From a virus, in IMG/VR virus record IMGVR_UViG_3300022562_001990, positions 5,440 to 69,439 of that record: DNA of 64,000 nucleotides, one strand, 5' to 3'. Both the position numbers and the translations under genes were made by a program. Positions 10,212 through 27,418 of the stretch are shown here, piece after piece (position 1 is the first letter of the stretch; each line of letters begins with the position of its first letter). The notes beneath the pieces were generated by a model. It was not told the DNA's origin. It made no database searches and was given only the letters and a program-made list of their open reading frames with translations.

Positions 10212-10291
10212 GCTCTCCGGTCGGATGGGCTAGGGTAAACCTCCACCTGGTCCTTGGTGCCAATGTCGAGTACGGCACACTTCAGGAGAGC

Positions 10292-10588: not shown

Positions 10589-13500
10589 GTGGCAACTGAA
10601 TTCAATTACGTCGTCAACGTAGACACGACCCGTGTCATGGGTGCGATGTCGGAGGTTCGTTCCCAGATGGGAATGGCTCTCGGCGGCGTACCTTCTCAGT
10701 TTGCCCCGACGGGTCCCATGGCCCAGATGATGGCTGGCCTCGAGAGCAGGGCGGGCTCCATCCTCGGACGGACACACACCGATCCGGGGATGGCCTACAA
10801 CCCGCACTACGGCCAGGTCCATGCAACGACGACAGCAGAGCAGGAAGCCGCGGTCGCCCGTCACGGCCTGGCGGCAGCTGAGGCCATGCGGCCTCCGGGA
10901 GTATCTGCCTACGAGTACGCGGCAGGCGTTCACGAGAACGCAATCGAGCGCCAGCAGCAAGCCAGGAACGCGGCGCGCAATGCCGCTCAATCCACCTTCC
11001 TCAGTGGCGCTGGTGGCCTTGCTGCGGGCGAGGCAGCCTTTGCCGGGGCAAGCCTCGTCGGCGGTGCGCTTGGAGCCCGAGTAGGAGCGCGCCTCTTTGG
11101 CGGCGGCTTGGGCGGTGCGGCGGCCGGGGCAGGCCGATTCCTTGGCGGCATGGGTCTCGGAATCATGGCCTTCGGCATGGCTGAGGAGTATGTCGGCGGA
11201 AAGATTCGAGATCACTACGCGGAGATCGAGCGGGTCAGCGGCGTTACCAACGAGCTCGCCGATATCGTAGGTGGCGGCCGCAACCTGACTAGAACCCAGA
11301 GGTACGAGACAGGTATCGCGGCGCGCGAGGCAGCCAGGGACATCAACATGGATGTCCAGCAGATGGGAACGATCGCCTCGCTGGCACGGCACACCGGGCT
11401 GCTTCCGAGCACCACTGATCCGACCAAGCTACGTGAGCAGCTCGGCAACCTAGCCAAGGCCGTCGATGAGGGAGCCTCAGCCCTTCACACGTCGCTTGGC
11501 AATGCGGCAATGGTGATCCGCTCGGCGGCGAAGCAGGGGCTCTCGGCCGAGGAGGGGATCCTTCGGGCAGGGGCCGCTGGCGGCGCAGAGCAGTACCTGG
11601 CGGCCCAGTCGCGCTATGAAGCCTTCGGGCGCCAGGGTGCTCAGTTTGCGCTGTCCCAGCGCCTCACAGAGCAGCAAGGCTTCGCGATGTTCACCGGGGC
11701 TCTCGGCCAGGCTGCCGGGGCCGGAATCTCTCCGGAGCAGATGAAGGTCCTCGGCGGCCGTTACGGCGCCGCTCAGCTCATTGGAGGCGCCCAGATCGCC
11801 TCTGCCATGAGTCCGCTCGGCGAGCTCCAGCTCATGGCGGGCACCGGCGGCGAGGCGCTCGGCGGAATGATGGATATGCCTGGTCAGGCACTGGCAGCGA
11901 TGTCGGGCGGAGAAGGCCTGATGACCAACATGATGCGGTTCCAGGTCTACAAGGACGATCTGCGCCGCGGGATTGGAGCCAAGGGTATCCGCACCATGGC
12001 TCGCCAGCAGATGCAGATGGGCGCCGACATGCTCGAGTCCCTGGGCATGGGCGGTAGCAACAAGGAGAGGATGGCTTTCTGGGCTCAGAGCCAAATGGGG
12101 ATGAACCCAACCCAGGCGCTTGCCTACGCGGGCGCCATGGGAGCAGGAGGCGGTGGAGGTGGGCCCGGCGGTGGTGGAGCTGGCGGCGAAGCCTATGCTC
12201 GACGGCTCGATACGTTCCAGAACATGCAAATGCACAGGGCAGGCCTTGCAGCTCTTGGAGCATTCGACCCCAAGAGCGCAGCGGACTATACGGAAGGATA
12301 CGGATTCGGATCTGGATATGCCCTGGAAGGCGGCATGACAGGATTCATGGTCGGAGGTCCGAAGGGTGCCGTCATTGGCGCTGCCGCAGGACTTGTTGCC
12401 GGAAACGCAAAGGCGGCGTGGAACTTCGGCAAGGACCTGTTTGACACGGGGCCCGGACTCTTCGCCAGCGCCCAGGAGAAGGCTGACTACTACAACCGCC
12501 GCGACGCGGCCGAGTACGATGCGAAGGTTTCCGCGTTCAAGGAAAGATACGGCAGCATTGACATCAACATGGATGTAGCTGCACGAGTACGCTCGGCACC
12601 GCTCCGGCGAGTTCAGCTAGACGCCTCCACTTCGATGTCCTCCGCAGCACTTAGTCGGTACACCGGTGTGATGAGCGTACTAAACCTGTCTCCAGTGGAG
12701 GCGGGTCCCGGAACCCTGGGCATCGGAGACAGAAGCCTGAACATAAGAGATCTCCGCGAGCGCGCGAAGATGGCGGATGCGCCGGCGATAGTTACCGACA
12801 AGGTGAAGGATATTGCCTACAAACTTGTAGTTGAAAATCCGAACAAGGAACTGAACGAGGCAAGGAAGGAATACAAGCGAGCATTCACTCAGCTTGCCGA
12901 AGACGACTTTCATGCACCAGATCGCATCCCCGAAGGAGAGAAGGCGGAGTACATCGCTGAGAAGCGTCGCGATGCAATCAAGAGGCTTAACCAGTCTGCT
13001 GGCGTAATGGTAAAGGCCGCCGGCGATGCGGGCATCAACGCTGACTATAGGATTGCCGGGGCTGTTGGGCCGAAGGTTCGTGGCCTAGCAGGCGAGTTGC
13101 TCGGGGGCTGGGAAGCACCAAAGCTTCATGCCCAGATGAGGACCGATATCACATTGGCGGCAAGTCTCGCGGAGGAGGAGGGCGCAGCCCAGCAGCGCAT
13201 GGTCAACTACATCCTAAGAGCTTCCGGCGAGCGTGGGATGGCGGCTGGCGGTTCCCCGGCTGGACGCATGACCGACGAAGAGCTGAGAAGTGAATACGAT
13301 CTTCTCACACAAGGAGAACAGTACAGAGGGACGCGCGTTCTTGGAAAGTACCCTGGAGATACGTTCGAAGAGTTTAAGAAGAGATTCCCTCGAGGAGTTC
13401 AAGGTGAACTAACGGAGAGAATCAGCAAGGGGGGCATGAAGGCCGTCAAGGACGTCGATCAGATGTTGCTTGGGGATTTTGTCCCAGGGATCGCTGAGGA

Positions 13501-14221
13501 GTATGCGGAGTCGGGTAGCTACGAAAAAGCGATCGCCTCCTTCAGCGAGAAGATCGCAGGAAGAAGTCGAGGCTCTCGCAATCTTGCAATGGGCGGAACA
13601 GATGTTCGGTATGTCAACGAAGCTCTCTCTGACCCTGCGATACGAAAGGCCATTGCGTCCGGAGACGTTGATCTGATCAAGAAGGGGATGGGCCGCATTG
13701 CTCGAAAAGAGGAGTACGAGGGTGTTGATGCGGCAAAAATTATTCAAACCGTGACGACGGGGAAGATGGCCCCAGCGGAGCTTGATGGAGGGAACTTGCT
13801 TGTCGGAGCAGTTGCTCTTGCGGACAAGCTCACAGAAGGAGCTGCATCGAAAGCCATTGCGGGTGGTGCCCTTGGATCTGATATCGCAGAGGCACTAACT
13901 CCTGTGTCTCTCATAGGGCCAAAGGGCAACGCAGGAAGGTGGGCAAGGAACCTTTACGATATGGGAACGAACCCCGAGTCGGAAGTGGCCGGCAAGAAGA
14001 AGCGTCCTCGAGAGGCTATGGCAGCTCACGCAATCGGATTCGGTCAGCAGGAGTCGGCGCTCACCACGATCAACAGAGCGCTGGAGAAAACTCACAGGAT
14101 GCTCGGCGCCCTGGAAAAGGACATGATGGGGAGAAGGGGCAGCGCAGCTGGCTCCGGAGGGAACGATAGTCCGGCCTCGAGAGGCGGCGCCGGAGGTTCA
14201 GGAAGGCCACCAGGAACATGA
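10589..14221 (+). CDS. Putative tape measure protein
   Basis: 1210 aa, Ala/Gly-rich and helical with hydrophobic Gly-rich stretches, located between chaperones and hub genes. Confidence 0.75.
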   Translation: MATEFNYVVNVDTTRVMGAMSEVRSQMGMALGGVPSQFAPTGPMAQMMAGLESRAGSILGRTHTDPGMAYNPHYGQVHATTTAEQEAAVARHGLAAAEAMRPPGVSAYEYAAGVHENAIERQQQARNAARNAAQSTFLSGAGGLAAGEAAFAGASLVGGALGARVGARLFGGGLGGAAAGAGRFLGGMGLGIMAFGMAEEYVGGKIRDHYAEIERVSGVTNELADIVGGGRNLTRTQRYETGIAAREAARDINMDVQQMGTIASLARHTGLLPSTTDPTKLREQLGNLAKAVDEGASALHTSLGNAAMVIRSAAKQGLSAEEGILRAGAAGGAEQYLAAQSRYEAFGRQGAQFALSQRLTEQQGFAMFTGALGQAAGAGISPEQMKVLGGRYGAAQLIGGAQIASAMSPLGELQLMAGTGGEALGGMMDMPGQALAAMSGGEGLMTNMMRFQVYKDDLRRGIGAKGIRTMARQQMQMGADMLESLGMGGSNKERMAFWAQSQMGMNPTQALAYAGAMGAGGGGGGPGGGGAGGEAYARRLDTFQNMQMHRAGLAALGAFDPKSAADYTEGYGFGSGYALEGGMTGFMVGGPKGAVIGAAAGLVAGNAKAAWNFGKDLFDTGPGLFASAQEKADYYNRRDAAEYDAKVSAFKERYGSIDINMDVAARVRSAPLRRVQLDASTSMSSAALSRYTGVMSVLNLSPVEAGPGTLGIGDRSLNIRDLRERAKMADAPAIVTDKVKDIAYKLVVENPNKELNEARKEYKRAFTQLAEDDFHAPDRIPEGEKAEYIAEKRRDAIKRLNQSAGVMVKAAGDAGINADYRIAGAVGPKVRGLAGELLGGWEAPKLHAQMRTDITLAASLAEEEGAAQQRMVNYILRASGERGMAAGGSPAGRMTDEELRSEYDLLTQGEQYRGTRVLGKYPGDTFEEFKKRFPRGVQGELTERISKGGMKAVKDVDQMLLGDFVPGIAEEYAESGSYEKAIASFSEKIAGRSRGSRNLAMGGTDVRYVNEALSDPAIRKAIASGDVDLIKKGMGRIARKEEYEGVDAAKIIQTVTTGKMAPAELDGGNLLVGAVALADKLTEGAASKAIAGGALGSDIAEALTPVSLIGPKGNAGRWARNLYDMGTNPESEVAGKKKRPREAMAAHAIGFGQQESALTTINRALEKTHRMLGALEKDMMGRRGSAAGSGGNDSPASRGGAGGSGRPPGT

Positions 14222-15141
14222 GCACACCACCAGGAGATCAGGGTTGGGGCAAAGGCCAGTGGGGTGTATCCCCGTGGGGAATCGGCTTTATCGAGCCACC
14301 ATCCCCTCCAGTTGTGACGGCAATCTCCCCAGTCAACGGAGAGACGGGCGTTGCCCAAAGTCGGCCGATTGTACTTTCCATCACCGACAACGAAGAGGTT
14401 GCGCTTGCAAGCATTCGAGTTGCCGTAGGAGGAATCAACTACATCTTCGGCGGAGTCGCGCAAAACGGAGCCGACGTTTCCTTCGAGGTCAATGACGGCA
14501 ATGGCGTAGACATCGAAATCTACCTACCCGAGAAAATGCCCCTGGGCTCTCGCCAGGAGGTTGCGGTCAGTGTCAAAGACAACGACGGCCTCGAGACCAA
14601 CGAGTCCATCTTCTTCACCGTTGGTGTTGGCGGTCGGCTACTCAGCGTGGTCAATCCAGCGCCGAACCTCCTCATCGCAAGATTCAACGAGGCTATGACC
14701 CATGACGAGGAGTTCCTTTTCCCTGGCAACTGGCTGATCAGAACCATCACGGAGGGAGCCCCAGACCTTGTGATCACCAAGGTCTCCGTCGACCCCGGCC
14801 AGGCGAACGTCGCCTTCCTCGAGCATGAAGGCGGAGGCTCGACCTACGAGCTCACTGTCATCAAGGTGAGCACCGCCGACGGTGATGCCCTCGAGCTCGG
14901 ACAGAACAGTGCCGTCTTCGAGCTCATCTACAGCCAGGAGGAAGATCCTCGGATCAGTCTTTTCAATACGATCTTCGGTCCCATCGGAGTCTCCCAGCGA
15001 GTTCGGAACCGGAGAACGATGGACGACCACGTCATCAATAGATCCATCGCCCTTGGCATGGACGAGCAGTTCAGGCTCAGATTCCAGTCCCTCGACGGAA
15101 CGCAGGGTAGGGACGGTCGACCAGGAACCAGGAGAACGTAA
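14218..15141 (+). CDS. Ig-like domain virion protein
   Basis: PVVTAISPVNGETGVAQSRPIVLSITD (Big-type start); beta-rich. Confidence 0.6.
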   Translation: MSTPPGDQGWGKGQWGVSPWGIGFIEPPSPPVVTAISPVNGETGVAQSRPIVLSITDNEEVALASIRVAVGGINYIFGGVAQNGADVSFEVNDGNGVDIEIYLPEKMPLGSRQEVAVSVKDNDGLETNESIFFTVGVGGRLLSVVNPAPNLLIARFNEAMTHDEEFLFPGNWLIRTITEGAPDLVITKVSVDPGQANVAFLEHEGGGSTYELTVIKVSTADGDALELGQNSAVFELIYSQEEDPRISLFNTIFGPIGVSQRVRNRRTMDDHVINRSIALGMDEQFRLRFQSLDGTQGRDGRPGTRRT

Positions 15142-16277
15142 TGGCATCGCGGACAACCAGCAAGGAAGAGATCTCAGCCGTCCTCGAGGGAAGGGGTCCG
15201 CTCGGTGCCGAGCGGCTAATCGAGTACAACATCTTCCTCACAGATGGCTTTGGAGGTCCGCCGTCTGGGTCCGTGCAGTTTCTTGATGGTCCGGGCGTTC
15301 CTGCGCAGATCGACGGATTCAGCAACGACGATTCCTATCGTCGGTCGCGCCACCTCTATCGGAATGCGAACAAGGAGTCCCTGTCGATCAATGCAGAGAA
15401 TCTGCGAGAAAACTCTCTGGCTCGCCAACTCGACAGCAAGCGAGACCAGCCTGCGACGATCCGACTCATTCGCAGGAGGAAGCCAGAAGAGCTTCCCGTG
15501 GAGGACTCGACAGAGAAGCGTGTCCCATGGGTGAACCTGATCCCACCAAACACCAAGTTCTTCCTCGAGCAGGTCCAAGAGAACCGGGAGGAAAAGGTTC
15601 AGATCATCGACACCTTCGGTGAGTGGATCGCCTTTTTCTTCGGTCGCCGCCCAGAGATCTACAGCTACTCGGGCACACTCCTCAACGCGAAGAACCATGA
15701 CTGGAAGAATGAGTTCCAGCAGAACTACGACTACTTCCTTCGTGGATCCCAGGCGGTAAAGAACCGCGCCACGATCATCATGCAGTACGACGACGTGGTC
15801 GTCGAAGGCTACATGCTGAACTCGACAATCACGCAGGCCGCCGTCGCCGACAACGCGGTCCCCTTCCAGTTCAACCTCTTGGTGATCAACAGGTCGCCGC
15901 TTAACCCGGCAAGGATGCTGGGGCTACGCTTCCAGCGTTCGACCCGGACCGAACTCGAGAACCAGCTCTTCAACGATATCCAGTCTTCGCTCGACCTTGG
16001 AGATACTGCCGAGACAGCCGCAGAGAGACTGGCCTCGCTGGAGACGTTCCTCATCATGAGGGAGTACTTCTCCGGGAACTACGCTCCGTCCGCTGGTACG
16101 ACCACCCACCGAACCAACACCAACAACCTTGAGTCTGGAGCCAGCGTGATCCCTGGGCAGAACGTCGGACTCAAGAACGAGCCCCTGAGCCCCTCTTCGT
16201 TTGCAAGCGGAACCACGAAATCGATCGAGGAGAACGGCGTCACGATTCCTGGGCTCGGCGTAGAGAGCCTGGAGTAG
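15141..16277 (+). CDS. Putative baseplate/tail-tube initiator protein
   Basis: Sits between tape measure and hub; beta-rich core EKVQIIDTFG...YSYSGTLLN. Confidence 0.5.
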   Translation: MASRTTSKEEISAVLEGRGPLGAERLIEYNIFLTDGFGGPPSGSVQFLDGPGVPAQIDGFSNDDSYRRSRHLYRNANKESLSINAENLRENSLARQLDSKRDQPATIRLIRRRKPEELPVEDSTEKRVPWVNLIPPNTKFFLEQVQENREEKVQIIDTFGEWIAFFFGRRPEIYSYSGTLLNAKNHDWKNEFQQNYDYFLRGSQAVKNRATIIMQYDDVVVEGYMLNSTITQAAVADNAVPFQFNLLVINRSPLNPARMLGLRFQRSTRTELENQLFNDIQSSLDLGDTAETAAERLASLETFLIMREYFSGNYAPSAGTTTHRTNTNNLESGASVIPGQNVGLKNEPLSPSSFASGTTKSIEENGVTIPGLGVESLE

Positions 16278-16280
16278 TCG

Positions 16281-19200
16281 ATGCCCGGTCATGGCAAAGG
16301 AGCAGAAGTAAAGCTTCGGCTTTACATGGAGGGTCGGCTGGTCGAGAACGCTCTCAACCACGTCCAGGTCTCCGGTCATACTGGGTCGCCAGCCACAGCA
16401 CAGCTGTCCCTCGTCCCCACCAACACGATCAAGCATATCCTTCCGGGAACGTGGGTTCATGTCTTTGCGACGGACCCCTGGGACCAGAACCCAAGAGGAG
16501 ATGTCGGGGACTACAAGCTTCTCTTCGAGGGCATTGTTGTCTCTCGTGGATTCACCCGCGCAGACGACGGGCGAGCTCTTTCGGTTCAGTGTGCCGATCC
16601 ATCCATCTACTGGGTGGAGGCGAGGCAGTTCTGGCTCAGCATTACCTCGGCCAATGGTGGCATTGTTGACCAGCTCGCCATCCAAACATCGGGCGGATAC
16701 GGACGCTTTGGGTCGGTCACGGCGGAGGGCGTGTATGGCTACATGATTCCGAAGATCGCTCTCACCAAAGACCAGGGCGAAGAACGGTTCATGGATACGA
16801 TGATCTCGGTCATCGACGACATCGGCAATGTCAATCCGTTCTACACGAACGCGCGCAACCGCTTCCGCATCACCGACAGGATCATCCGCGGCAATGCGGG
16901 AAACACGGAGAAGCTGTTCCAACTCGCGTTGCTAAGCGACTTCCTGGACGGACTCGGAGGAGGGCAGTCCGGGCAGTCGAACCTTGCCCAGCTCGTGAAC
17001 CAGCTGCTCGGATCCATCATGCATGAGTGGGTCTCGGTTCCGGCGCCGCCATATGTTTCAACGAGAATCTTCAGCCGAGATGTCTTCGGAAACATCAAGC
17101 GCAAGAAGACGACAGTCAACAGAACCGATAGCCGAGGTCGTCGCAAGGTCGACCTGTTCGAGTATGAGACCGCTATCGACAGCGTCGTTGCCAGCTACAT
17201 CTTCAAGCCGCACGTCTACACCCTGTCGCCGCCCACCTGCAACGTGCTGTTTCCGAACATGTACGACCAGATGTCGTACCAAGAGAACTTCATGCAGGAG
17301 ACAACGCGGCTGCAGATGATGCCGCAGCTTCCAATGAAGAACCAGCGGCAGCTCATGGGCCTCTACATGCTGAGGCCTGCCGAGATCGAGCTCTTTACTG
17401 CGCAAATCCGAGATGAGAACAGCAAGTCCCCTGGCAAGCGCACGCCTGACGGGAAGTATGCCGATGGTGCTGGGCAGGCACCCCGTTTCAATGACTATGA
17501 CTGGACGACCAACGAAGAGCGAATCCGAGGGATCGTCTACAACTTCATCAACCTGGCGCCTGCTCCGTCGACGCTTACGCTGCAGGGCCAGGGCAAGAAG
17601 GAGCCCGACGGCAACCGGAAAGGGGGCATCCCCGACTACCTTCAGAACGTCGCCAGCTACGAGTACTTCAAGGCCAAGTTCGCGGCCCGCCAGTCATCCC
17701 TCTCGGGTCCGTTCAACATGCGGCCGATCCCAGGATTCCCCATCCTTGCGCTGGACGACTCTGATGCCGACATGAACATCGTGGCGTATCTCGATGCGAT
17801 CGTTCACGACATTTCTGCCAACGGATCCGCTACGACGCAGTACGCAATCCAGTACCCAAGGTTCGTGGACGAAGTCGATTTCAACCGCCCACGGTTCAAG
17901 GCGGCGGGAACAAAGTACGAGGGGCAGCTCGACTTCGACCTCTACCGGGACGAGCGGGGAAACTACGACTTCGGGACCATCTATGACGGAGAGAATGCTC
18001 CGCCGATCCCTGAATGGTTCGACGAGAAGCTACGCTCGCTTACCGGTCTGAACGATACCTACGCTGAATGGTTTGGCTCCAATGTTGGAGTCGTCCAGTC
18101 GTTTCTTTTCGAGGACGCGGACGACAACGAGGTTGCCTTGATCGCACAGCAGGAGGCTGAGCGCACCCAGGAGTACGAGGAGCTTGGCATCGATGCATCC
18201 AAGGGAGTGAACCTCAAAGTCACCACTCCGTCGCAGGTGCCGGGGGTGACAGGAGAGACGATTACTGCGAGCGATGCACTCTCCGACAAGAACAAGGACG
18301 ACATCCAGAGAGCAAACGACAAGATCACTTTGCAGGATGCGACCGACGAGCTCAACGACGCCTACCGTCGATCTCGGGGTGACAACAGAGAGTTCGAGCT
18401 TGCATCGACTGTCACGGACCGATCGTTCACCAGAATCGACGAAGCCTTCCGTTTTGTCGGAGCATCCTCCGTGGAGTACGCGGACAGGACGAAGAAGCCA
18501 AGCCAGAGTGCACGGGTTACCTTCGACAAGAACCCTGCCGCCACGAGGCGGGTTGATTACCGCACGGCGAAGTTCAGGACCTTCGTCGGAGATACGTCCA
18601 CAGGCTCAGGCTACTATGGTGTCAAAGAGGGCGAGGCAAAGCCAAACCCAACAACGACCTCGACGACGGTGTCCGATGCAACCGCCGGCCAGGTCGAGGT
18701 AGATGCCGTTTCCGGAGCCGACGCAGCCGCGCCAGAGGACAGGATGTCCGGTGCCTTCCCGGTCTTTGACACAACGGTCCATACGGGCGATGAGGCCCTG
18801 GACCAAAAGACGAGGGACTCCCTTCTCACGAGCAACTCGGAGCGAGCACCTTCCGATCGAGCTCGCTATGACGGGCGGCCGGTCATGTTCGACTTCGAGT
18901 TTCGCATCTGGCAAGACTCGCTTCGCATTGCAGGCTTCTCTCCCACGGGGGAGCGGATCGCCGATGCCGCCGAACTTGCCACGAATTACGTGACGGAGAG
19001 GGGTCAGACGCGCCCCGCTACGGCGCAGGAGCTCGCACAGGCCCGAGAGGCAAGGGCTGCCGCCATCGCCGCCCGGAAGGAAGAGGAGGAGGCAAGGGCT
19101 TCGAAGGGGCGTGGAAACCCCAGTAAGGATCCGAACATGGCGCCAAGCCAACAGGCTCCGACCGGAGACGGCCTCTACCAGAAAGAGAAGCCAGCACTTC

Positions 19201-19298
19201 CACAGCCACTATCGGAGAAGCAGGTCATTGATCTGCGGCGGGCAGTCATCGATGCTTACAGAGATGAGCTTGAGAGGAACCGTGGATTCACTGGATAA
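16281..19298 (+). CDS. Putative baseplate hub protein (gp27/gpD-like) with long C-terminal extension
   Basis: LRLYMEG...LLFEGIV start and GPFNMRPIPGFP...AYLDAIVHDI hub-like barrel; operon position. Confidence 0.6.
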   Translation: MPGHGKGAEVKLRLYMEGRLVENALNHVQVSGHTGSPATAQLSLVPTNTIKHILPGTWVHVFATDPWDQNPRGDVGDYKLLFEGIVVSRGFTRADDGRALSVQCADPSIYWVEARQFWLSITSANGGIVDQLAIQTSGGYGRFGSVTAEGVYGYMIPKIALTKDQGEERFMDTMISVIDDIGNVNPFYTNARNRFRITDRIIRGNAGNTEKLFQLALLSDFLDGLGGGQSGQSNLAQLVNQLLGSIMHEWVSVPAPPYVSTRIFSRDVFGNIKRKKTTVNRTDSRGRRKVDLFEYETAIDSVVASYIFKPHVYTLSPPTCNVLFPNMYDQMSYQENFMQETTRLQMMPQLPMKNQRQLMGLYMLRPAEIELFTAQIRDENSKSPGKRTPDGKYADGAGQAPRFNDYDWTTNEERIRGIVYNFINLAPAPSTLTLQGQGKKEPDGNRKGGIPDYLQNVASYEYFKAKFAARQSSLSGPFNMRPIPGFPILALDDSDADMNIVAYLDAIVHDISANGSATTQYAIQYPRFVDEVDFNRPRFKAAGTKYEGQLDFDLYRDERGNYDFGTIYDGENAPPIPEWFDEKLRSLTGLNDTYAEWFGSNVGVVQSFLFEDADDNEVALIAQQEAERTQEYEELGIDASKGVNLKVTTPSQVPGVTGETITASDALSDKNKDDIQRANDKITLQDATDELNDAYRRSRGDNREFELASTVTDRSFTRIDEAFRFVGASSVEYADRTKKPSQSARVTFDKNPAATRRVDYRTAKFRTFVGDTSTGSGYYGVKEGEAKPNPTTTSTTVSDATAGQVEVDAVSGADAAAPEDRMSGAFPVFDTTVHTGDEALDQKTRDSLLTSNSERAPSDRARYDGRPVMFDFEFRIWQDSLRIAGFSPTGERIADAAELATNYVTERGQTRPATAQELAQAREARAAAIAARKEEEEARASKGRGNPSKDPNMAPSQQAPTGDGLYQKEKPALPQPLSEKQVIDLRRAVIDAYRDELERNRGFTG

Positions 19299-20142
19299 AA
19301 ATGAAGACCTCGAGCTCGACGTAGAGGCTGAGCTTGAAGAGTGGCTAGAGAAGCAGGCTGCAGAGATGGGAATCTCGCAGGATGACCTGCGCCAGCAGGA
19401 GCTCGATGCGTGGGAGCGCTGGCGTTCGAACCCCAACCCAGAGGATTTTAGCTGGCTCTACAACAGCCACCAGCCACTCATCAACAGCGCAGGAGGCAGG
19501 TATCTCCGTACCGTGCAGCTTCCTAAGGCCGCAATCAAGAGCAGGCTTCTTCGGAACTACGTCAAGGCTCTCGAGACCTACGACCCGACCCGCGGAACCC
19601 AGCTGAGCAGCCATGTCTACAGTGGACTTGGGTACCGGATGCAGAGGTATATCCAGAAGTACACGAATGTCGGTCGAATCCCCGATGACCGAGCGTGGAT
19701 GATCCCCATGATCCAACAAAGGGAAGCCGCCTTGAATGATCTCCTGGGAAGGAAGCCGTCCGACGCCGAGCTAGCAGATGACATCCTCGTCTCGCAGCAG
19801 GGCCTATCCGACCTTCGGCGGGGACAGGTGACGCCCAAGAACGTGGCCACTACACGCAGGGAGCTGCGCAACGACCTCATTGCCGAGGAGGCCGGCGGAG
19901 AGGCTCAGCTTGGCGGCCGGTCTTATGTTGAGCAGCAGGCAGTGTTCCTCCATGGCTCGTTGAACCCGGAGCAGCAGCTCGTGCTCGAGCATACCTTCGA
20001 GGGATTCGGCAAGCCCATCATCACCGACGTGGACCAGCTTTCGAAGGAGCTGGACATGTCGCCGCAAAAGGTTCGCGCAATCAAGAAGCAGCTCGAAAGG
20101 AAGCTGGAGCGCTACTACCGCTCGACGAATGTGAGTGACTGA
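19282..20142 (+). CDS. Sigma70-family RNA polymerase sigma factor (FliA/SigF-like architecture)
   Basis: Region 2 KALETYDPTRGTQLSSHV, region 3 LGRKPSDAELAD, region 4 LNPEQQLVL...LSKELDMSPQKVRAIK. GTG 19282 follows GAGAGGA. Confidence 0.85.
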   Translation: MDSLDKNEDLELDVEAELEEWLEKQAAEMGISQDDLRQQELDAWERWRSNPNPEDFSWLYNSHQPLINSAGGRYLRTVQLPKAAIKSRLLRNYVKALETYDPTRGTQLSSHVYSGLGYRMQRYIQKYTNVGRIPDDRAWMIPMIQQREAALNDLLGRKPSDAELADDILVSQQGLSDLRRGQVTPKNVATTRRELRNDLIAEEAGGEAQLGGRSYVEQQAVFLHGSLNPEQQLVLEHTFEGFGKPIITDVDQLSKELDMSPQKVRAIKKQLERKLERYYRSTNVSD

Positions 20143-22139
20143 TGGCAGAAGAAGCCGACATCAAGCAAGCGATTGGCTGCCTGTCTGCGTCGTTCCCGGC
20201 GTACACGGCGAAGCAGCTTGCTGCACTCACGGACTCCATTGTGTCCGCGGTGCAGGGCTTCACCGATCCGCTCGCAGCCATCAGCGATCTGAACCTCGAC
20301 AATCTCATCGACCAGGTTGCAGAGATCTCAGAAGGCGACGTCTTTGGAAACCTAGCGTCGGCTGCGGCAGGGCTTCTCACGCAGCATGTCACTCGCGAAC
20401 TCGAGGACGCGATCGCTGCGAAGGAGACTGAGGTTCTTTCTGCATCAAAGCGCGTCAACCAAATCCGCAACATGTCCTCGAAGGTTGTCGGTGTCGCCCA
20501 GACAATGATGTCTCTCTACAACGACATGCCCTATGCGGCCGTCGAGAGAATGTGCCAGCAGATCATCAGGCTCGACGTGCTGAAGATCGACAACCTGAAG
20601 TGTCTCCGAAAACACATCGTTCAGCTTGTGAACTGCGTCCTCGTCCTGGTCGAGAACGTGGAGAACTACAAGGACGACACCATCGAAGATCTCATCAAGG
20701 CTTCCGCCGAGCTCGAGAAGGTCAAGGCAGAGCTCATCAAGTCGCGGGTTCTCGTTGACGGAACCACCACTTTCGACTCGACGGCCTTTGAGCGCGCCAG
20801 GACTGCGATGGTGGAGGTCGCTCGTATTCTAACCCCGGACAAGAACGGAACGACCATTCTTGACGTGGCGCTCATCCTGACATCTGGGAGCGTGGAGGCG
20901 GGGCAGGTGGACGCGTCAAACAGGGCCCTGGCGACGCTCGTGATCCCCTCCTTGATCAACCTCATTGAGGCAGAGGTGGCTGCCGTCGTCTCTCAGATTG
21001 GAGTCATCAACTACTACATCGGTGCGATGCAGCTGGTGATAGAAAGCTTCAGGGGAGCTGCGACTACTCCGAGGATATCAGAGCAGCGAAACCGGGCCAT
21101 CAGTGACATCTACGCTCGAGTAGAAAACATGTCGGACCGGATCAATCTGACCATCGCGAACGAGAGTATTACGGTTGCCTCGGGATCAATGCTCCTTTGG
21201 GCCTCGAGGGCGAAGGCAATCATCGTCTTGATGGACAACGTCAAGAAGCTCGCTTTCGAGGAAGGATCTGTTGACGGCGAGGTGGCGGCGGCCGCGCTGG
21301 CTTCTGCGTTCGAGGGGCTGCTCGAGGACCTGATGAACATCTCGAATGCCAATACGGTCGACGGCATCGAGGACCCGACAGACTTTCGCGACAGGGTGCT
21401 AGCCCTCACCGCTGGAGCGAGAAGGATTCTCAGCGACCTCGAGAAAGGCCGTGCCACCGCAAACCGGATGGCAACATTCCACGCCCTCTCGGTGGCGACT
21501 GCAACGGCGCAGGTGAGCACCCTTGAAAACTCAAGCACGGTGGCATCGCTGCAGAAGGTGGCCTGCGAGAAGTACGTCTCGACCTACGAGTCGCTGGATC
21601 TCCAGATCGCATCCAAGTACGCCGATCTCACAGACTCCATGAGGCAGCTGGGCCTCGACCGCGCCGTTGACCTTCTCAATGCCGGGCAGTTCGAGGAGTT
21701 CGTGAGCGCGGACCTAAATGACCTCTCCTACCTGGGGCAGATCATCCAATGCCTTACGCGATCTCTCGACGGCATCGACGATGCGCAAACCAGGCAGCAG
21801 ATCATCGACATTCGGGACGATCTCGTCGGGCTAAGAACGAACCTTGACGTAGCCGGAGCCGACTCGGCTGACCAGGGGAGGGCACGCTTCATTGGTCGCA
21901 TCCAGGAGGACATCGCAAGCACGCAGAGGAATGCGGAAATTGTGAAGTCCATCGTCAACGAGCTCACCGTGCTGGCCAATGAGATTGGCGCGGATCTCTC
22001 GGACGTCACCGAGGGAATCACAGGCTTCCTCGGTAACTTGGATCAGCTTGCCGTTGCCGCCGGCGGCCGGCTCTCCGGGGAACTCGAACGCTTCTCCGGG
22101 TTTCCGAACGCTGGCGTCCCGTTCTGCGAACCAACATGA
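20142..22139 (+). CDS. Large alpha-helical hypothetical protein
   Basis: 665 aa, acidic and helical; start coupled to the sigma stop (TGATG). Confidence 0.7.
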   Translation: MAEEADIKQAIGCLSASFPAYTAKQLAALTDSIVSAVQGFTDPLAAISDLNLDNLIDQVAEISEGDVFGNLASAAAGLLTQHVTRELEDAIAAKETEVLSASKRVNQIRNMSSKVVGVAQTMMSLYNDMPYAAVERMCQQIIRLDVLKIDNLKCLRKHIVQLVNCVLVLVENVENYKDDTIEDLIKASAELEKVKAELIKSRVLVDGTTTFDSTAFERARTAMVEVARILTPDKNGTTILDVALILTSGSVEAGQVDASNRALATLVIPSLINLIEAEVAAVVSQIGVINYYIGAMQLVIESFRGAATTPRISEQRNRAISDIYARVENMSDRINLTIANESITVASGSMLLWASRAKAIIVLMDNVKKLAFEEGSVDGEVAAAALASAFEGLLEDLMNISNANTVDGIEDPTDFRDRVLALTAGARRILSDLEKGRATANRMATFHALSVATATAQVSTLENSSTVASLQKVACEKYVSTYESLDLQIASKYADLTDSMRQLGLDRAVDLLNAGQFEEFVSADLNDLSYLGQIIQCLTRSLDGIDDAQTRQQIIDIRDDLVGLRTNLDVAGADSADQGRARFIGRIQEDIASTQRNAEIVKSIVNELTVLANEIGADLSDVTEGITGFLGNLDQLAVAAGGRLSGELERFSGFPNAGVPFCEPT

Positions 22140-22157
22140 TAAGGTTTTTCGTAAGTT

Positions 22158-22583
22158 ATGCCTGACCTGAAAGTACTCATAACCGACCCGAACACGGGAA
22201 GGCTTCGGGTTGGCATCCCTCGTCCGCCCCAACAGGTGGAGGGGATCGACCTGCTCGTCCAGATCGTCGTCCTGCTCTACCTCAACAACGGCGGCCGGTC
22301 GATTTTCGCCCCCGGTCGAGCTGGCGGCCTGCGGGATTACATCGGCCTAAACCACGACCCCGACGATCCATCAGAGCTCTTTGCTGACCTTCGACTCATG
22401 ACGAGCCGCATCGAGCAGATCATCAAGGAGGAGCAGGCGAGGACTACACGGCCGCCGTCCGAAAGGCTTCAATCTCTCTTCGTCTTGGATATCATCCCCG
22501 ACGATACTCAGCCGGAGATCGAAATCCAGGTCCAGGTCGTCAATGAGGAGCAAACAACAGCGCAGGCAGTGGTGACAATCTAA
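22158..22583 (+). CDS. Baseplate wedge gp25/gpW-like protein
   Basis: VEGIDLLVQIV...GRSIFAPGRAGGL; immediately before the J-like gene. Confidence 0.7.
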   Translation: MPDLKVLITDPNTGRLRVGIPRPPQQVEGIDLLVQIVVLLYLNNGGRSIFAPGRAGGLRDYIGLNHDPDDPSELFADLRLMTSRIEQIIKEEQARTTRPPSERLQSLFVLDIIPDDTQPEIEIQVQVVNEEQTTAQAVVTI

Positions 22584-24643
22584 TGGCTCTTCCAATCAAA
22601 GACTTCATCATCCAGCAGCTCCTTGAGTACGACTCGAGCTTCGACGTTGGCGCAGGTGTGCCTACGACCGGGCTTTTGGTTGAGCCTCTCTCTGTCATCC
22701 TTCAGCCAATCATCGACGAGCTCACGGTTGTTCAGGCCAGCCAGTCGATCCTCACAATCCTGGAGTCATCCGATCCAGACGCGTTCCCGGAGGACATTGT
22801 CGACGGTCTCGCGTCGAATGCCTTTGTCGAGAGGAACCCAGGCTCCATTGGCTCGGACGTCCAGAGGATTCGCTTCTTCGAACCGACCAGCTTCAGCGCA
22901 CAGCAAGGTGTCCTCATTTTCCGTGGGCCAGCCGGACAGCGGTACTCCAACTCGGAGGCAATCTCGGTCACCGAGGCAGAGATGAGCCTCAACCAAGAGG
23001 GGACACTCTACTTCATCGACCTTCCGATCGTGGCCCTCGAGGAGGGATCCGATTTCAACGTGTCAGCCGGTGGCATCACGACGATGGAGTCGGAGCCGGC
23101 CGGGGTAGCGAACACGACCAACCTCTTCGGAGTGACCGAGGGCCGGGACAGGGAGACCAACACCGAGCTCATTGACCGCATCAAGGTTGCCGTCACCGTT
23201 CGTGCCCTGGTGACTGGCCGCGGCATCATCGTCACCCTCACGGAGAACTTCACCTCCATCGAGGAGATCGAGCCCATCGGCTTCGGCGACGATGAGATGA
23301 TGCGAGACATCGTCTACAACGTGCACATCGGTGGCAACGTAGACGTCTACATCAAGGGCCCTGCGTTCACTTCTGGCTTTCAGGACTTCTTCGGCCTCGA
23401 GGTTGACACGACGAGGATTGCAGAAAGCAATGCCACGGTTGTCGCGCTCGACGACTCGGTAGGCTACCCGCTTGGCAAATACCCACTGGACCGCACGAAC
23501 AGCGCGCCCTCCGTCAAGTCCATCGACAGCATCTTCGTCTACGTCGATGGAGTCGACTACACGATCGACGACTCGGTAGGCCTTTTCTATCGACTCGGTG
23601 GAGGTGGAATCTTCCACATCACCGGAACGACGGGGACCGTGACGACCAGCAAAATCTTGAACGACGTGGGTGCATTCGCCGATGTCCGCACAGGAATGAT
23701 CCTGACCATCAACACGCCTGGCTCGGTGGCCGGCACCTACACGATCAAGTCCAAGATCGATGCCGACAACATCGAGATCTACGGAGACTTTCCGGCTCTG
23801 GTCGGCAGCGTTGGCTATCAGATCGACGACAACCTCGTCGTCGAGTTTGGCTACAACCCGATCGCCATCGACATCATCGCAGAGGCAAGGAACACGCAGC
23901 GTGAGGAGTTCACGATCACCGATGTTCCACTCATGTATATCGAGTCCATTGAGATTCTCGATCCGCTCTCCGGGGAGCCTACGGGAGAGACGCTGTCTGC
24001 GAATGGAGGATTTGGAGCAGGCGGGTATGGCGCAGGACCCTATGGCATTGGAAACGGCGCCGAGTACAAGTTCGTCGTCACAGAACCAACGCTGAGGCAC
24101 TCGGCTCAGGAAGACAACTACATCGAGATCAGCAGCCTCTTCCTCACGACGGCTATCCGCGTCAACTATCTCTATGCCTCTGCGATTCCCCCGATCCAGG
24201 CATTCATGGATGACCGGAACAACCAGAGCGAGACCGCCTCTCTGCTGGCACGGCACTTCATTCCGGCCTTCGTGGACAACCCGAACCCAGTCATCTACGA
24301 CATCCCGACGGCGACATCGACGACGGCGATCTCTGTTTCCGACATGACAGATCTCGTGAAGACGTTCATCGACGACATCAACGAAGGGCAGGCCTTCGAG
24401 TTGTCGGACATCGTTGACCTTCTCTACGACAACGGAGCATCCAGGGTTGATCTTGGTTCTCTCGACACATTCAAGGCAGAGATTCACAACCACGACGGGA
24501 CCGTCCAGTTCGAGCTTCCAACCGACGATGGAAGCATCACCGTTCCAGACGATGAGATCCCAGACCCGACTGACCGACCGCTCTCTCCACGGATCGCAAG
24601 GTTCAGAGCTAGAGACATCTCGCTACAAAGGAATGTCGTATGA
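22583..24643 (+). CDS. Baseplate J-like wedge protein
   Basis: ALEEGSDFNVSAG...GRDRETNTELIDRI...GGNVDVYI. Confidence 0.85.
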   Translation: MALPIKDFIIQQLLEYDSSFDVGAGVPTTGLLVEPLSVILQPIIDELTVVQASQSILTILESSDPDAFPEDIVDGLASNAFVERNPGSIGSDVQRIRFFEPTSFSAQQGVLIFRGPAGQRYSNSEAISVTEAEMSLNQEGTLYFIDLPIVALEEGSDFNVSAGGITTMESEPAGVANTTNLFGVTEGRDRETNTELIDRIKVAVTVRALVTGRGIIVTLTENFTSIEEIEPIGFGDDEMMRDIVYNVHIGGNVDVYIKGPAFTSGFQDFFGLEVDTTRIAESNATVVALDDSVGYPLGKYPLDRTNSAPSVKSIDSIFVYVDGVDYTIDDSVGLFYRLGGGGIFHITGTTGTVTTSKILNDVGAFADVRTGMILTINTPGSVAGTYTIKSKIDADNIEIYGDFPALVGSVGYQIDDNLVVEFGYNPIAIDIIAEARNTQREEFTITDVPLMYIESIEILDPLSGEPTGETLSANGGFGAGGYGAGPYGIGNGAEYKFVVTEPTLRHSAQEDNYIEISSLFLTTAIRVNYLYASAIPPIQAFMDDRNNQSETASLLARHFIPAFVDNPNPVIYDIPTATSTTAISVSDMTDLVKTFIDDINEGQAFELSDIVDLLYDNGASRVDLGSLDTFKAEIHNHDGTVQFELPTDDGSITVPDDEIPDPTDRPLSPRIARFRARDISLQRNVV

Positions 24644-24933
24644 ACCTAGCCAGCTTCGCAGATGAGCTCGTGAAGGTAGGTGCTGCAAAGACGCTTGTTC
24701 GCAAGATCGCGTCCAGCCAGGACGTCACCACGATTGACACCCCGGATGGAATGATGAGCGCGAGCTCGCCACCGCCGGCGCTCACTCATCGTCCCGACGA
24801 TGCATCTACCAGGGTTCCGAGGGCGATGAAGACAGCCCCCATGATCGTGTCGGGAACGCTTGGGCCAGTTGCGGTGGCCAAGGATCCAATCGACAGGGAG
24901 AAGTACAACCGCGCGTACAATGAGAGGCGATGA
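24640..24933 (+). CDS. Small protein with FADELVKVG / RKIAS motifs
   Basis: Overlaps both neighbours by 4 nt; N-terminus resembles that of the 2018 protein. Confidence 0.65.
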   Translation: MNLASFADELVKVGAAKTLVRKIASSQDVTTIDTPDGMMSASSPPPALTHRPDDASTRVPRAMKTAPMIVSGTLGPVAVAKDPIDREKYNRAYNERR

Positions 24934-27380
24934 GTCACATTTCCTCAGCATTCCTCTTCCGGTTCCTCGACGACGTCTGGGATCTACTGCCAACGGAAGA
25001 CCGGGAGCTCTTCCAGTCCTATTGGAAGGGGCAGGTTCGCATTGGTGCCGATCTCGAGCAGAAGACGCTAGAGGCGGCACAGTCGACAGAGGTCTCTGAA
25101 GTTCCTGTTTTCCTGACGGAGCGCTGGAACCGCTTCGTCATGGACGAGGACTCGACCGATCAGTTTGAGCAGACGGACGAGCTCTTGCTCGTGATGACTG
25201 CTGCCCAAACGATCTCACGGGAAACAGCCTTCTACGACACCCTGAGTGTCTCGAATGCATCCCGACAGATCCCGCATGAGGAGACCATCCGATTCTTCGA
25301 TGACTCTGTGCGGGAGCTGAGATATCCGCTGCTGGTTCCTGGAACCATCTCCATTCGCCTTGTTGGAGTTGGCGGCATCGAATACACGCCAGGCCGCGAC
25401 TATGTCGTCAACGAATTCGAGGGAACGGTTCAAGCTCTCGACAGCGGTCGCATCCCTCCGACCGAGATCCTCACGGTCTACTACCAGCACGAGGAGTACA
25501 CCGAGGGACTCGATTACACGGTCGACCACTCCAAGAACACGATTGCAAGAACCGCCTCCTCGGCCATTCCGAGTGGCTCCACGGTCTATGCAACGTACAC
25601 CTACAATGGGACGGCAACCCTTCCCCTGCAGAGCGAAAGTGGTGCTGTCGACGTTGCGGTCCTAACCGACTACACAAAAAACTTCAGCACCCTCCTCCCA
25701 GGACGAACGCTCACTATTTCCGAGGGGGCGAACGAGGGAACCTACACGATCAACTCGATCCTGAACGACAACCAGATTCAGATCGCCGAACTCTTTCCGC
25801 AGACCCAGGACAACAACGTCGTCTATTCAATCGACGCCTTCCCCCATGGCGTCAAGGTGAGCTCTCAGATTGAGTCGATTCCTCTCCTTCAGAACCTTGT
25901 AGACAGCCCCGACTGGGCACTGGTCGAGGGAGTGGACTACGTGGTCAGCGGCGGAATCCTGTCGATGCGAGCAGCATTTCCTCTGTCGAAGATTGGCCCA
26001 GAGGACACAAGGCAGAGGCAGGCCTGGGCGGAGATCACCAAGGTCAACAAGCAAACTCCCTACAGAAACTTCGGAGTTCTCATCGACTTCTTCCGCGAGA
26101 ACTCGGAAGCGTACAAGCTCGCGCTGCAGGGGCTCTGGTTCACCTTCTGGACTGGCTCAACCCCAGGCAACCTGGGCAGAGGGCTTCACATCCTACTAGG
26201 GCTTCCGTTCGCTCGGCGAGCAGGGACGGTCACAAGGGTCGACACCGACCTGGCCGAGATTGACATCACCGAAGACAGCGGCCGAATCATCACCTACACA
26301 ATTCCGTCTGGGCTGGATCCGGTCGTAGCGCGTGGAGACGCGGTCCCACGCTTCGAGTCCTTGACGACGGGCGTTCAGATCATCGACCGAAACAACGAGC
26401 CAGGATTCGTGGCCAGCCGCCTTGGCAGAGCTGGAATCGAGAAGTTCCTGACGAGCCAGGCCTCCAAGGGAGATGGCGACACCGACGAGACCAAGGCGCT
26501 CACGCTTCTCGAGAACCACCTTTTTCTTCCGCAGGTTCTTACCGAGGCGATCACACAAAGAGTCAACGTCGCCGAGCTCGTAACCTTCCTCGACAACATG
26601 AAGCCGCAGTGGACGGAGTACGTCTTCTCGTTTGCGGCCGAGATCGAGGAGACGCTGTATCTGTCAGCAGACCCGCACGATGGAACGAGGTGGGTGAACC
26701 TGTCGCCGGGCGAGGTCATGGATGCCCAGCAGGACCTCAACCTGACGACCACGATCAGCAACAACGAGTTCAACAAATCCTTCATCCTCGAGGAGTTCAT
26801 TGTCGACAGCATCTCAGGAGAGGTTCTTGCGGCCGGGTCTCAGGCGACGGGAAACTTCCGGGACCTGACAAAAGACTTCGTGGTCCTGGGCGTCGACGCC
26901 GGAAGCATCGTCTTCATTCCGGTTGGCAACTTCAAGGGCTACCATCTCGTCCTCGAGCGACAAAGTACCAACCTCTTGTCCCTCGATATCCCGGACTCGT
27001 CTCTCATCGCCGACGTCGGAATCGAGTACAAAGTCCTGAGCAAGGAGCAGAGCATCCTTGACCATGACTCGATCCAGCTCCGTGGAGAGCACACGGTTTT
27101 GCCGGGGACCGACTACCTGTCCCCCTCGACACTCAACACCAAGACGGATATTGACCTGGTCGGCATTGGGGTCACAAACGAGCAGGCCAAGACGCTCTTG
27201 CTTGTGGACATCGGGAACGTCGGCAACGAAGTTCAGGCCATTACCGACGCCGACGTAGAAACAGGGGAATTTGATGTCTCCTCATCCCCAGGGGTGGTAA
27301 CACGAGACCACGAAATAGCTTCGGCGGCTCTCAAACGGACAAACAACGTAGCGACGGTGACGGACGCCTTTGCAATCTAG
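24930..27380 (+). CDS. Baseplate wedge (gpI-like) multidomain protein
   Basis: FWTGSTPGNLGRGLHILLGLP and LDNMKPQWT wedge-type motifs; repeated EGxDY beta modules. Confidence 0.7.
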   Translation: MSHISSAFLFRFLDDVWDLLPTEDRELFQSYWKGQVRIGADLEQKTLEAAQSTEVSEVPVFLTERWNRFVMDEDSTDQFEQTDELLLVMTAAQTISRETAFYDTLSVSNASRQIPHEETIRFFDDSVRELRYPLLVPGTISIRLVGVGGIEYTPGRDYVVNEFEGTVQALDSGRIPPTEILTVYYQHEEYTEGLDYTVDHSKNTIARTASSAIPSGSTVYATYTYNGTATLPLQSESGAVDVAVLTDYTKNFSTLLPGRTLTISEGANEGTYTINSILNDNQIQIAELFPQTQDNNVVYSIDAFPHGVKVSSQIESIPLLQNLVDSPDWALVEGVDYVVSGGILSMRAAFPLSKIGPEDTRQRQAWAEITKVNKQTPYRNFGVLIDFFRENSEAYKLALQGLWFTFWTGSTPGNLGRGLHILLGLPFARRAGTVTRVDTDLAEIDITEDSGRIITYTIPSGLDPVVARGDAVPRFESLTTGVQIIDRNNEPGFVASRLGRAGIEKFLTSQASKGDGDTDETKALTLLENHLFLPQVLTEAITQRVNVAELVTFLDNMKPQWTEYVFSFAAEIEETLYLSADPHDGTRWVNLSPGEVMDAQQDLNLTTTISNNEFNKSFILEEFIVDSISGEVLAAGSQATGNFRDLTKDFVVLGVDAGSIVFIPVGNFKGYHLVLERQSTNLLSLDIPDSSLIADVGIEYKVLSKEQSILDHDSIQLRGEHTVLPGTDYLSPSTLNTKTDIDLVGIGVTNEQAKTLLLVDIGNVGNEVQAITDADVETGEFDVSSSPGVVTRDHEIASAALKRTNNVATVTDAFAI

Positions 27381-27388
27381 GACCTTGA

Positions 27389-27418
27389 TTGACGATGCAG
27401 GGCGCTCCCCACTAGAAT
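27389..27418 (+). promoter_or_regulatory. Sigma70-type promoter TTGACG-N18-TAGAAT
   Basis: Near-consensus -35/-10 pair in the intergenic gap before 27430. Confidence 0.6.

Follow-up and report, generated by a model that had tools for sequence, protein, structure and literature searches.

The 64,000-nucleotide (nt) stretch of DNA analysed here, from now on the window, belongs to the virus record IMGVR_UViG_3300022562_001990 and encodes, among its tail and baseplate genes, a sigma-70-family protein of 286 amino acids (aa), together with a fused beta-beta' RNA polymerase (RNAP) of the multisubunit type. Our preferred reading, to which we give a little better than an even chance, is that this protein serves the phage's own polymerase as its dedicated sigma, is produced alongside the virion parts and travels in the particle. 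The sigma would be translated off the long tail/baseplate transcript and coupled to the hub gene, and for that reason would be made together with virion parts; it would serve as the promoter-specificity subunit of the fused polymerase. The particle would then hold both proteins and deliver them along with the DNA, so that the incoming genome would be transcribed from phage promoters without a host sigma. Packaging in the window's phage and a role in early transcription are inferred, and virion presence is carried over from papers on relatives. All positions are those of the window unless a locus is named, and features are collected in Table 1.

The open reading frame (ORF) at 19282-20142 had been called a sigma factor in an earlier note made from the sequence, and both sequence and structure matches bear this out: its product is confirmed as a divergent member of the sigma-70 family that has domains 2 and 4 and probably domain 3, its identity standing well above chance. 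A phmmer search against the PDB retrieved Clostridioides difficile SigA (E 4.8e-8, residues 92-284), with RpoS chains next, and PHROG 351, 'RNA polymerase sigma factor', matched at E 7.7e-7. The AlphaFold2 (AF2) model, built with 107 homologues, is all-helical with one disordered linker and has a mean predicted local distance difference test score (pLDDT) of 86.1. Foldseek returned 37 PDB chains at E <= 1e-3, all sigma-70-family among the matches listed. With VIA-align the model was superposed on an RpoS fragment of region 1.2 and region 2 (5h6x_A; Z 11.2, root-mean-square deviation (rmsd) 2.7, 94 aligned), on domain 2 of Mycobacterium tuberculosis SigA (4x8k_A; Z 10.5, rmsd 2.1, 92 aligned) and, over the full length, on sigma-S, SigB and sigma-70. 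Pfam gave nothing above its cut-off on the protein (Sigma70_r3 21.1 bits, 25.3 required) and Sigma70_r2 on the window DNA only at E 0.047; precomputed Pfam assignments among the 107 homologues place Sigma70_r2 on 4 and Sigma70_r3 on 23.

The alignment with SigA covers region 2.2 onward, takes in the region 4.2 helices and ends at SigA residue 385; domain 4 of the model contains helices 250-257 and 261-282, and a nearly invariant S-P-Q-K-x-R segment is found in this domain among the homologues. In the printed phmmer alignment the region 4.2 recognition helix differs from that of SigA, and the W-W of SigA region 2.3 stands opposite S-G. Judged by this replacement, the phage sigma is no simple copy of a housekeeping or host sigma. 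It does not resemble a group 1 (primary) sigma, having only about 50 residues before region 2 and the W-W of region 2.3 replaced, nor is it of the T4 gp55 type, since it has domains 2-4 and the phage encodes a beta-beta' RNAP.

The frame is open from 19111, its first codon at 19282 is GTG rather than ATG, and the N-terminus reads V/M-D-S-L-D-K-N-E-D, as quoted in the earlier note. Further in-frame starts lie at ATG 19252 and ATG 19264, which other gene callers picked to give products of 296 and 292 aa, and at ATG 19366 (M29). The column of the 19282 start is occupied in 93% of the 107 homologues (by M in 59%) and is followed by D and S, and this start is thus backed by alignment with homologues. 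M29 was rejected as the true start because it is not conserved among the homologues, whereas the residues upstream of it are. The overlaps on which the earlier note had remarked were found at both ends: the upstream hub gene stops at TAA 19296-19298, 17 nt into the sigma gene, and the sigma stop and the start codon ATG of the following gene have one base in common (TGATG). The purine-rich GAGAGGAA just ahead of the GTG is likely the ribosome-binding site for coupled translation of the sigma.

The placement in a baseplate operon, also claimed before, holds: Baseplate_J was recognised above its cut-off at 22583-24643, with a PHROG 'baseplate wedge subunit' match. The sigma is encoded within the late/structural block, with the hub on one side and baseplate J on the other, and the RNAP gene is a neighbour of the portal; late expression is presumed from these positions. 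Genes on the plus strand abut or overlap throughout 10292-27380. A consensus scan found no sigma-70-type promoter-like site, host-type consensus only, on the plus strand of 10000-27388, and no terminator-like site on the plus strand of 15633-26610. No convincing shared phage promoter motif emerged from direct repeats or from k-mer enrichment in 22 upstream spacers. The hexamer TAGAAT occurs seven times in the window against 9.2 expected by chance, and is therefore not above chance. Three of its five plus-strand copies (27413, 37947 and 62286) lie in short intergenic spacers before structural genes; one of the three is part of TTGACG-18-TAGAAT and one is TG-extended. These spacer sites are possible sigma-70-like late promoters.

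The hub label of the 1005-aa upstream protein draws on weak leads, namely Pfam Phage-tail_2 at E 0.013 and ESM Atlas neighbours of the Mu gpP/gp44 and gpD/VgrG types, and the protein is 26% identical to Gp8 of Salmonella phage Arash; by these leads it is putatively hub or VgrG-like. Neither the hub nor the 665-aa protein downstream of the sigma matched anything in sequence searches of the PDB. No major capsid protein could be named in the window, where Pfam and PHROGs left most neighbouring proteins unnamed.

Synteny in relatives, which the earlier note had put forward as a check, showed that the hub-sigma-baseplate order is kept across very divergent phages. Among 1702 candidates scored, 107 were close sigma homologues at E <= 1e-3, and the sigma profile matched 199 cluster representatives at E <= 1e-30. 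We compared 48 loci, made up of 45 from IMG/VR, one contig of a metagenome-assembled genome (MAG), Arash and Vibrio phage D69; the window's own record (L005) and L050-L055, fetched for other purposes or duplicating L001 and L002, were left out. Since six groups of loci look near-identical, about 40 of the 48 are distinct. By tblastn at least one flanking marker lay near the sigma on the same strand in 31 of the 48 loci. With iterated profiles, a homologue of the hub or of g378 was found upstream on the same strand in 46 loci and a homologue of g141, baseplate J or g816 downstream in 36, both sides being present in 34; profile iteration can drift, and these matches were consistent in strand and order. 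The two loci lacking an upstream match begin at the sigma gene. For the cultured phages Arash and D69 the GenBank annotation gives the same order. The distance from the end of the hub ORF to the start of the sigma match ranges from -13 to +41 nt among the closest relatives; in Arash an additional gene intervenes. Complete relatives have genomes of 150-205 kb. A scan of species-representative genomes for a prophage or a clue to the host yielded only a 1.6-kb MAG contig.

The phage's own RNAP is the candidate partner. Its NADFDGD catalytic segment (residues 1385-1391) is invariant in 58 homologues, and among 120 matches listed all homologues carry Rpb2 and Rpb1 Pfam domains, nearly all being about 2000-2900 aa long. 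Most relatives encode the polymerase in a single open frame of 2076-2639 aa; in some it is split. It was present in 13 of the 15 relatives' whole records searched and in all eight that are at least 90% complete; the two records without it are estimated to be 32% and 77% complete. Each of five complete genomes has exactly one sigma match. In the phage collection a sigma homologue was found in four records (three Vibrio phages and Arash), and the same four gave the fullest RNAP matches, 67-95% covered at 32-34% identity. The sigma thus co-occurs one-to-one with the phage polymerase, whose gene adjoins the portal in the window and in Arash. Several RNAP homologues contain intein or LAGLIDADG domains (PF14890, PF14528).

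Co-folding the sigma with residues 1040-1480 of the RNAP (beta' clamp region), the pairing with the 2062-aa polymerase that the earlier note had suggested trying, gave scores of 0.65, 0.47 and 0.56 (median 0.56, best of three controls 0.00), which is weak support and, because sigma and beta' are a textbook pair, shows likeness to solved holoenzymes and is no proof of binding. The runs agree in at least 40% of contacts with a partner pLDDT of at least 60. Among 80 solved complexes 58 attain the mark used, and among 110 mismatched pairs 2 do; scores at or below 0.60 account for only 7 of those 80 and for both mismatches. We infer that the sigma binds the phage polymerase.

The earlier note had left the choice between phage RNAP and host core to further work, and co-occurrence (13/15, 8/8) tilts it towards the phage enzyme. 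That the sigma instead redirects host core RNAP to phage promoters, in the manner of T4 gp55 or SPO1 gp28/gp34 and with no relation to the phage polymerase, is in our view very improbable: a bacterial-type polymerase with an intact catalytic motif accompanies it in all eight near-complete relatives, and the S-G opposite the region 2.3 W-W sets it apart from a simple host-sigma copy. What speaks for host core is that the protein is a full sigma-70-type factor whose closest solved relatives are cellular sigmas, and that phage sigmas generally act with host core according to the available parts of reviews (PMC7598289, PMC7824862, PMC13282480).

Carriage in the particle is argued chiefly from Arash. 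In its particle preparations 116 of 272 proteins were listed as virion-associated (PMC10585845). The sigma Gp10 was detected with 100% coverage, 24 unique peptides and 467 spectra, the RNAP chain Gp206 with 3516 spectra, the most of all, and Gp216 with 1210 (PMC10585845, Table 2). Dividing these spectra by protein length, a crude measure and our own arithmetic on PMC10585845, gives 2.3 spectra per residue for Gp206 (beta and the N-terminal part of beta'), 2.0 for Gp216 (C-terminal part of beta') and 2.0 for Gp10. The same measure is 4.3 for the major capsid protein, 1.5 for the portal, 0.67-0.98 for baseplate and hub proteins, 0.87 for ribonucleotide reductase and 0.59 for deoxynucleoside monophosphate (dNMP) kinase. 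The near-equal values of sigma and polymerase fit a holoenzyme, in a preparation that was not clean, as its metabolic enzymes show. An Arash DNA helicase (Gp217), encoded after the beta' gene, is also abundant in the particle proteome (PMC10585845).

The phage YerA41 offers a second, more distant parallel: its sigma factor is listed among late genes and marked as particle-associated (PMC7354516). Pfam Sigma70_r2 found no match in YerA41, Carin-5 or TM30, and the YerA41 sigma would be an analogue rather than a homologue at the sensitivity of our profile.

The idea of a late-made, packaged sigma, first raised in the earlier note, is thus plausible from the conserved order, the lack of a host-type promoter match and the occurrence of Arash Gp10 in virion preparations; for the window's phage it is unproven. 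Its main rival, which we regard as unlikely, is that the sigma partners the phage RNAP without being functionally packaged. Host RNAP would then transcribe the early genes while the phage holoenzyme accumulates and drives the late structural genes and its own operon in a positive feedback, and detection in virion preparations would be carry-over. Such a role would suit the location of both the sigma and RNAP genes among structural genes, the TAGAAT -10 promoter matches in the three plus-strand spacers described above, the many non-structural enzymes in the Arash proteome (PMC10585845) and the early expression of the YerA41 RNAP subunits (PMC7354516). A late-transcription sigma encoded only within a late operon, however, has no obvious first source, and there is one sigma per complete genome in five of five. 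Moreover, the Arash sigma and RNAP chains, at 2.0-2.3 spectra per residue, exceed the portal at 1.5 and are well above carry-over-like enzymes at 0.6-0.9 (PMC10585845).

Several points weigh against carriage in the particle and against parts of the preferred reading. Carry-over of abundant late proteins is possible in Arash, as its authors themselves raise (PMC10585845), and by spectra per residue the Arash baseplate proteins (0.67-0.98) score like ribonucleotide reductase (0.87) and dNMP kinase (0.59). Arash Gp10 is only about 30% identical to the window's sigma over residues 34-165 and has no leader. The sigma family profile matched none of the three records of YerA41, Carin-5 and TM30, and the YerA41 RNAP genes are early genes (PMC7354516). 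The promoter scan used the host-type consensus only and the phage's own consensus may differ. Co-occurrence of sigma and polymerase reflects shared inheritance and not binding, and the co-fold lends weak support only. A sigma made late could equally serve late transcription. Finally, the record is about 38% complete and the virion evidence comes from relatives only.

The position of the gene suggests a further route into the cell, which we think rather improbable, in which the hub or spike carries the sigma as cargo: a subclade-specific N-terminal helix would attach the sigma to the VgrG-like hub, and the sigma would enter at puncture ahead of the DNA and then meet the injected beta-beta' polymerase and genome. 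Type VI secretion system effectors encoded after vgrG provide an analogy. Hub-sigma adjacency is the most conserved feature of the family (46 of 48 loci; the two genes often overlap or lie only tens of bases apart), their translation is coupled in the window, the N-terminal type differs between subclades, as it might if it served for docking, and the hub has gpD/VgrG-like ESM Atlas neighbours, which are a lead only. Gene adjacency does not locate the protein, however, because in other phages genes for ejected head proteins likewise stand next to tail genes, and the near-equal spectra per residue of the Arash sigma and RNAP fit a holoenzyme better. Neither has a hub-sigma fusion been found, which is weak evidence, and the long extensions of two family members, P0241 and P0242, are unlike the hub. 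A fusion or frameshift joining the two genes was rejected for the window: the overlap is not conserved across relatives, and a search for longer forms found none.

The acidic N-terminal leader and the K-x-A described in the earlier note are both present, whereas the proteolytic maturation proposed with them is not supported. Among the 107 homologues the segment of residues 1-28 has a median net charge of -7. Residues 1-12 are variable and often absent, and residues 13-30 follow the motif D-[IV]-[DE]-x-E-L-x-x-W-L-x-K-x-A-A-x-x-G, with K24 conserved in 95%, A26 in 93%, L22 in 84% and A27 in 79%. The mean column entropy of residues 13-30 is 1.58, against 1.52-1.63 for domain 2. AF2 places a helix over the leader at 4-29, with pLDDT 76-87 in residues 13-30, followed by a universally conserved helix at 33-49. 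In the VIA-align superpositions on Escherichia coli sigma-70 and sigma-S, the aligned part of the model starts at residues 16-20, which face chain residues of about 100-106 and 60-65 respectively; we take these chain residues to be the start of region 1.2.

Elsewhere in the family the N-terminus differs by subclade. A K-Q-A-A-like motif is kept in the distant loci L017, L021 and L014, one subclade has M-P-S-I-L-G-D...P-F-S in place of the leader, and Arash, L011 and L012 have almost nothing ahead of the conserved helix. Some representatives carry 100-560 extra N-terminal residues in its place; P0241 (808 aa), P0242 (633 aa) and about ten others of 340-490 aa have long extensions before the sigma part. 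The P0241 extension gave a sub-threshold P-loop match, the P0241 and P0242 extensions showed no similarity to the hub, and in GC-rich DNA some of the shorter extensions may stem from genes that were called too long.

We read the leader as a lineage-specific N-terminal module that, going by the model, consists of a region-1.2-like helix and a short acidic tail and is an integral part of the protein. It may play a region-1.1-like role, keeping the factor or the holoenzyme off non-promoter DNA. A disposable pro-peptide is not supported by these comparisons, because residues 13-30 are conserved like domain 2, are predicted to be helical, align to region 1.2 and, in other subclades, give way to a different sequence or are absent. 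It is accordingly highly doubtful that the 28 residues are a pro-sequence or capsid-targeting peptide cut after K-x-A by a phage protease to activate the sigma, for all that K24, A26 and A27 are so well kept, that the K-Q-A-A-like motif recurs in distant loci and that the leader is similar in length to the pro-sequence of Bacillus subtilis pro-sigma-E. The 100-560-residue extensions that stand in for the leader in some relatives also speak against cleavage. Full coverage of Arash Gp10 (100%, PMC10585845) points the same way, yet Gp10 is without a leader. No protease family was recognised by Pfam or PHROG among the window proteins scanned, in a record about 38% complete, and no prohead protease could be named in the window by Pfam or PHROGs.

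In its short N-terminal extension before region 2 the window's sigma is like the B. subtilis pro-sigma-E and pro-sigma-K, whose pro-sequences are membrane-associated and are cut by the dedicated SpoIIGA and SpoIVFB. The leader differs from these in being strongly acidic (-10) and conserved within the fold, and no such protease was seen beside the gene. T4 gp55 and SPO1 gp28/gp34 are also sigma-family proteins of phages and alter the choice of promoter. They use host core and are produced ahead of the genes they target, unlike the window's system, which has its own polymerase and a sigma that is encoded within a structural operon and has domains 2-4 instead of a minimal form. The proposed logic, in which a polymerase is made late, carried and used on the incoming genome, is that of the N4 virion RNAP (vRNAP), a single-subunit enzyme. 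The virion RNAPs of phiKZ and AR9 share this logic (PMC7598289, PMC13282480), and in the available text of these sources they consist of four or five beta/beta' pieces without a sigma homologue, in contrast to the one fused chain and sigma-70-type partner of the window. Dedicated initiation factors of phage multisubunit RNAPs, such as we propose here, are known in phiKZ gp68 and AR9 gp226. As far as the same sources describe them, both belong to non-virion enzymes, AR9 gp226 has no sequence similarity to sigma and phiKZ gp68 structural homology only (PMC7598289, PMC13282480), whereas the window's sigma is detectable as sigma-70 family by sequence. Phage-encoded sigmas also occur in group 2 jumbo phages (PMC7824862).

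Arash is the closest cultured counterpart. Its Gp10, annotated 'RNA polymerase sigma factor RpoS', is a homologue by tblastn (E 8e-12, 29.5% identity over residues 34-165) and by the family profile (E 1.2e-32), and lies, as in the window, between the hub-type Gp8 and baseplate genes. The closest cultured relatives of the RNAP are likewise those of Arash, adjoining the portal. Arash differs in that Gp10 has 234 aa and almost no leader, in the small gene Gp9 between Gp8 and Gp10, and in an RNAP divided between two genes (Gp206, Gp216) about 4.7 kb of small genes apart, as against one fused gene. In the accessible portion of PMC10585845 the sigma finding is mentioned only in passing.

YerA41, with its late sigma g019, resembles the window in that it has RNAP subunits of bacterial type as well as a sigma encoded on the structural scaffold, and its authors propose injection with the DNA (PMC7354516). 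It differs in its separate beta' and beta genes, beta' first, which are expressed early (PMC7354516), and g019 matches neither the family profile nor Sigma70_r2. A second lineage with bacterial-type RNAP genes, in the order beta' then beta, is represented by Carin-5 (L052, 1652-8477) and YerA41 (L051, 1743-8453). Cobetia phage Carin-5 has an annotated 196-aa sigma directly upstream of its beta' and beta genes, and in YerA41 an unannotated 211-aa gene occupies the same slot, among replication genes. The sigmas of this lineage did not match the window's sigma family.

The clade to which the window belongs is widespread, almost wholly uncultured and under-recognised, because reviews of 2020, 2021 and 2026 state, in the parts available, that phage multisubunit RNAPs have no sigma homologue and that sigma-bearing jumbo phages have no RNAP and use host core (PMC7598289, PMC7824862, PMC13282480). 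It breaks this line between sigma and RNAP, with one bacterial-type beta-beta' polymerase, usually a single fused chain, and one sigma-70-type factor fixed beside the baseplate hub. Our literature search found no paper characterising a sigma-dependent phage polymerase of this type, and a search for a characterised packaged phage sigma retrieved only reovirus sigma proteins and known jumbo-phage work. If particles do carry the pair, it would be the first virion polymerase that depends on a sigma, and a compact holoenzyme of two proteins in which no alpha or omega subunit is recognised. It would help to understand how infection starts and offer a minimal model of bacterial-type transcription initiation. 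The cultured members Arash and Vibrio phage D69 make the proposal directly testable.

Table 1. Features of the window around the sigma gene and elsewhere, in order of position; parts of the sigma protein are given by residue
Feature	Position	Strand	Details
Conserved tail-module protein (g378)	15141-16277	+	378 aa; homologues in Arash (Gp6 region) and many loci
Putative hub or VgrG-like tail-tip protein	16281-19298	+	1005 aa; last 17 nt overlap the sigma start
Purine-rich GAGAGGAA	19272-19279	+	Just 5' of the GTG, within the hub gene end; read directly from the sequence
Sigma-70-family gene	19282-20142	+	286 aa; GTG start, TGA stop 20140-20142
Acidic N-terminal segment	19282-19365	+	Residues 1-28: 12 acidic, 2 basic, net charge -10
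Sigma domain 2	residues ~50-130		Matched in sequence and fold
Sigma domain 3 (probable)	residues ~135-200		Sigma70_r3 below cut-off; spanned by full-length structural alignments
Sigma flexible linker	residues 201-212		AF2 model
Sigma domain 4	residues ~215-282		Helix-turn-helix (region 4.2) found
665-aa protein, no family match	20142-22139	+	Start overlaps the sigma stop; tblastn matches only in the five closest loci (L003, L004, L007-L009)
Conserved small baseplate-module protein (g141)	22158-22583	+	141 aa
Baseplate J-like wedge protein	22583-24643	+	Pfam Baseplate_J 31.1 bits, cut-off 21.1; PHROG 'baseplate wedge subunit'
First sigma-70-like promoter match downstream of the sigma block	27389-27418	+	TTGACG, 18-nt spacer, TAGAAT; 10/12
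Portal	41660-43708	+	28% identity over 586 aligned columns to Arash Gp204, E 3e-82
Fused beta-beta' multisubunit-type RNAP	46448-52636	+	2062 aa; Rpb2 domains, then Rpb1 domains
Large terminase	59728-61506

The record itself is a 69,439-bp viral contig with an estimated CheckV completeness of 38%, and the full phage would be about 180 kb. Some further features of the window were observed. Between a 508-aa gene and a 1552-aa beta-helix protein with a TTG start, about 770 nt (29613-30383, plus strand) contain no convincing ORF; the frame from 29613 is protein-like for about 45 residues and then of low complexity near a short direct duplication, for which a frameshift, an error of assembly or decay of a gene may be responsible. 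A leftward block includes an N6-adenine methyltransferase-like protein (4170-5219, minus strand) and a SNF2-family helicase (6233-8233, minus strand). Near the right end a 69-nt direct repeat, 77% identical, at 62030-62098 and 63649-63717 on the plus strand suggests two paralogous small genes. Outside the window, near the left end of the contig, a GrpE homologue (L005 511-1188, minus strand; Pfam E 2e-34) is either a phage-borne co-chaperone gene or host flank.

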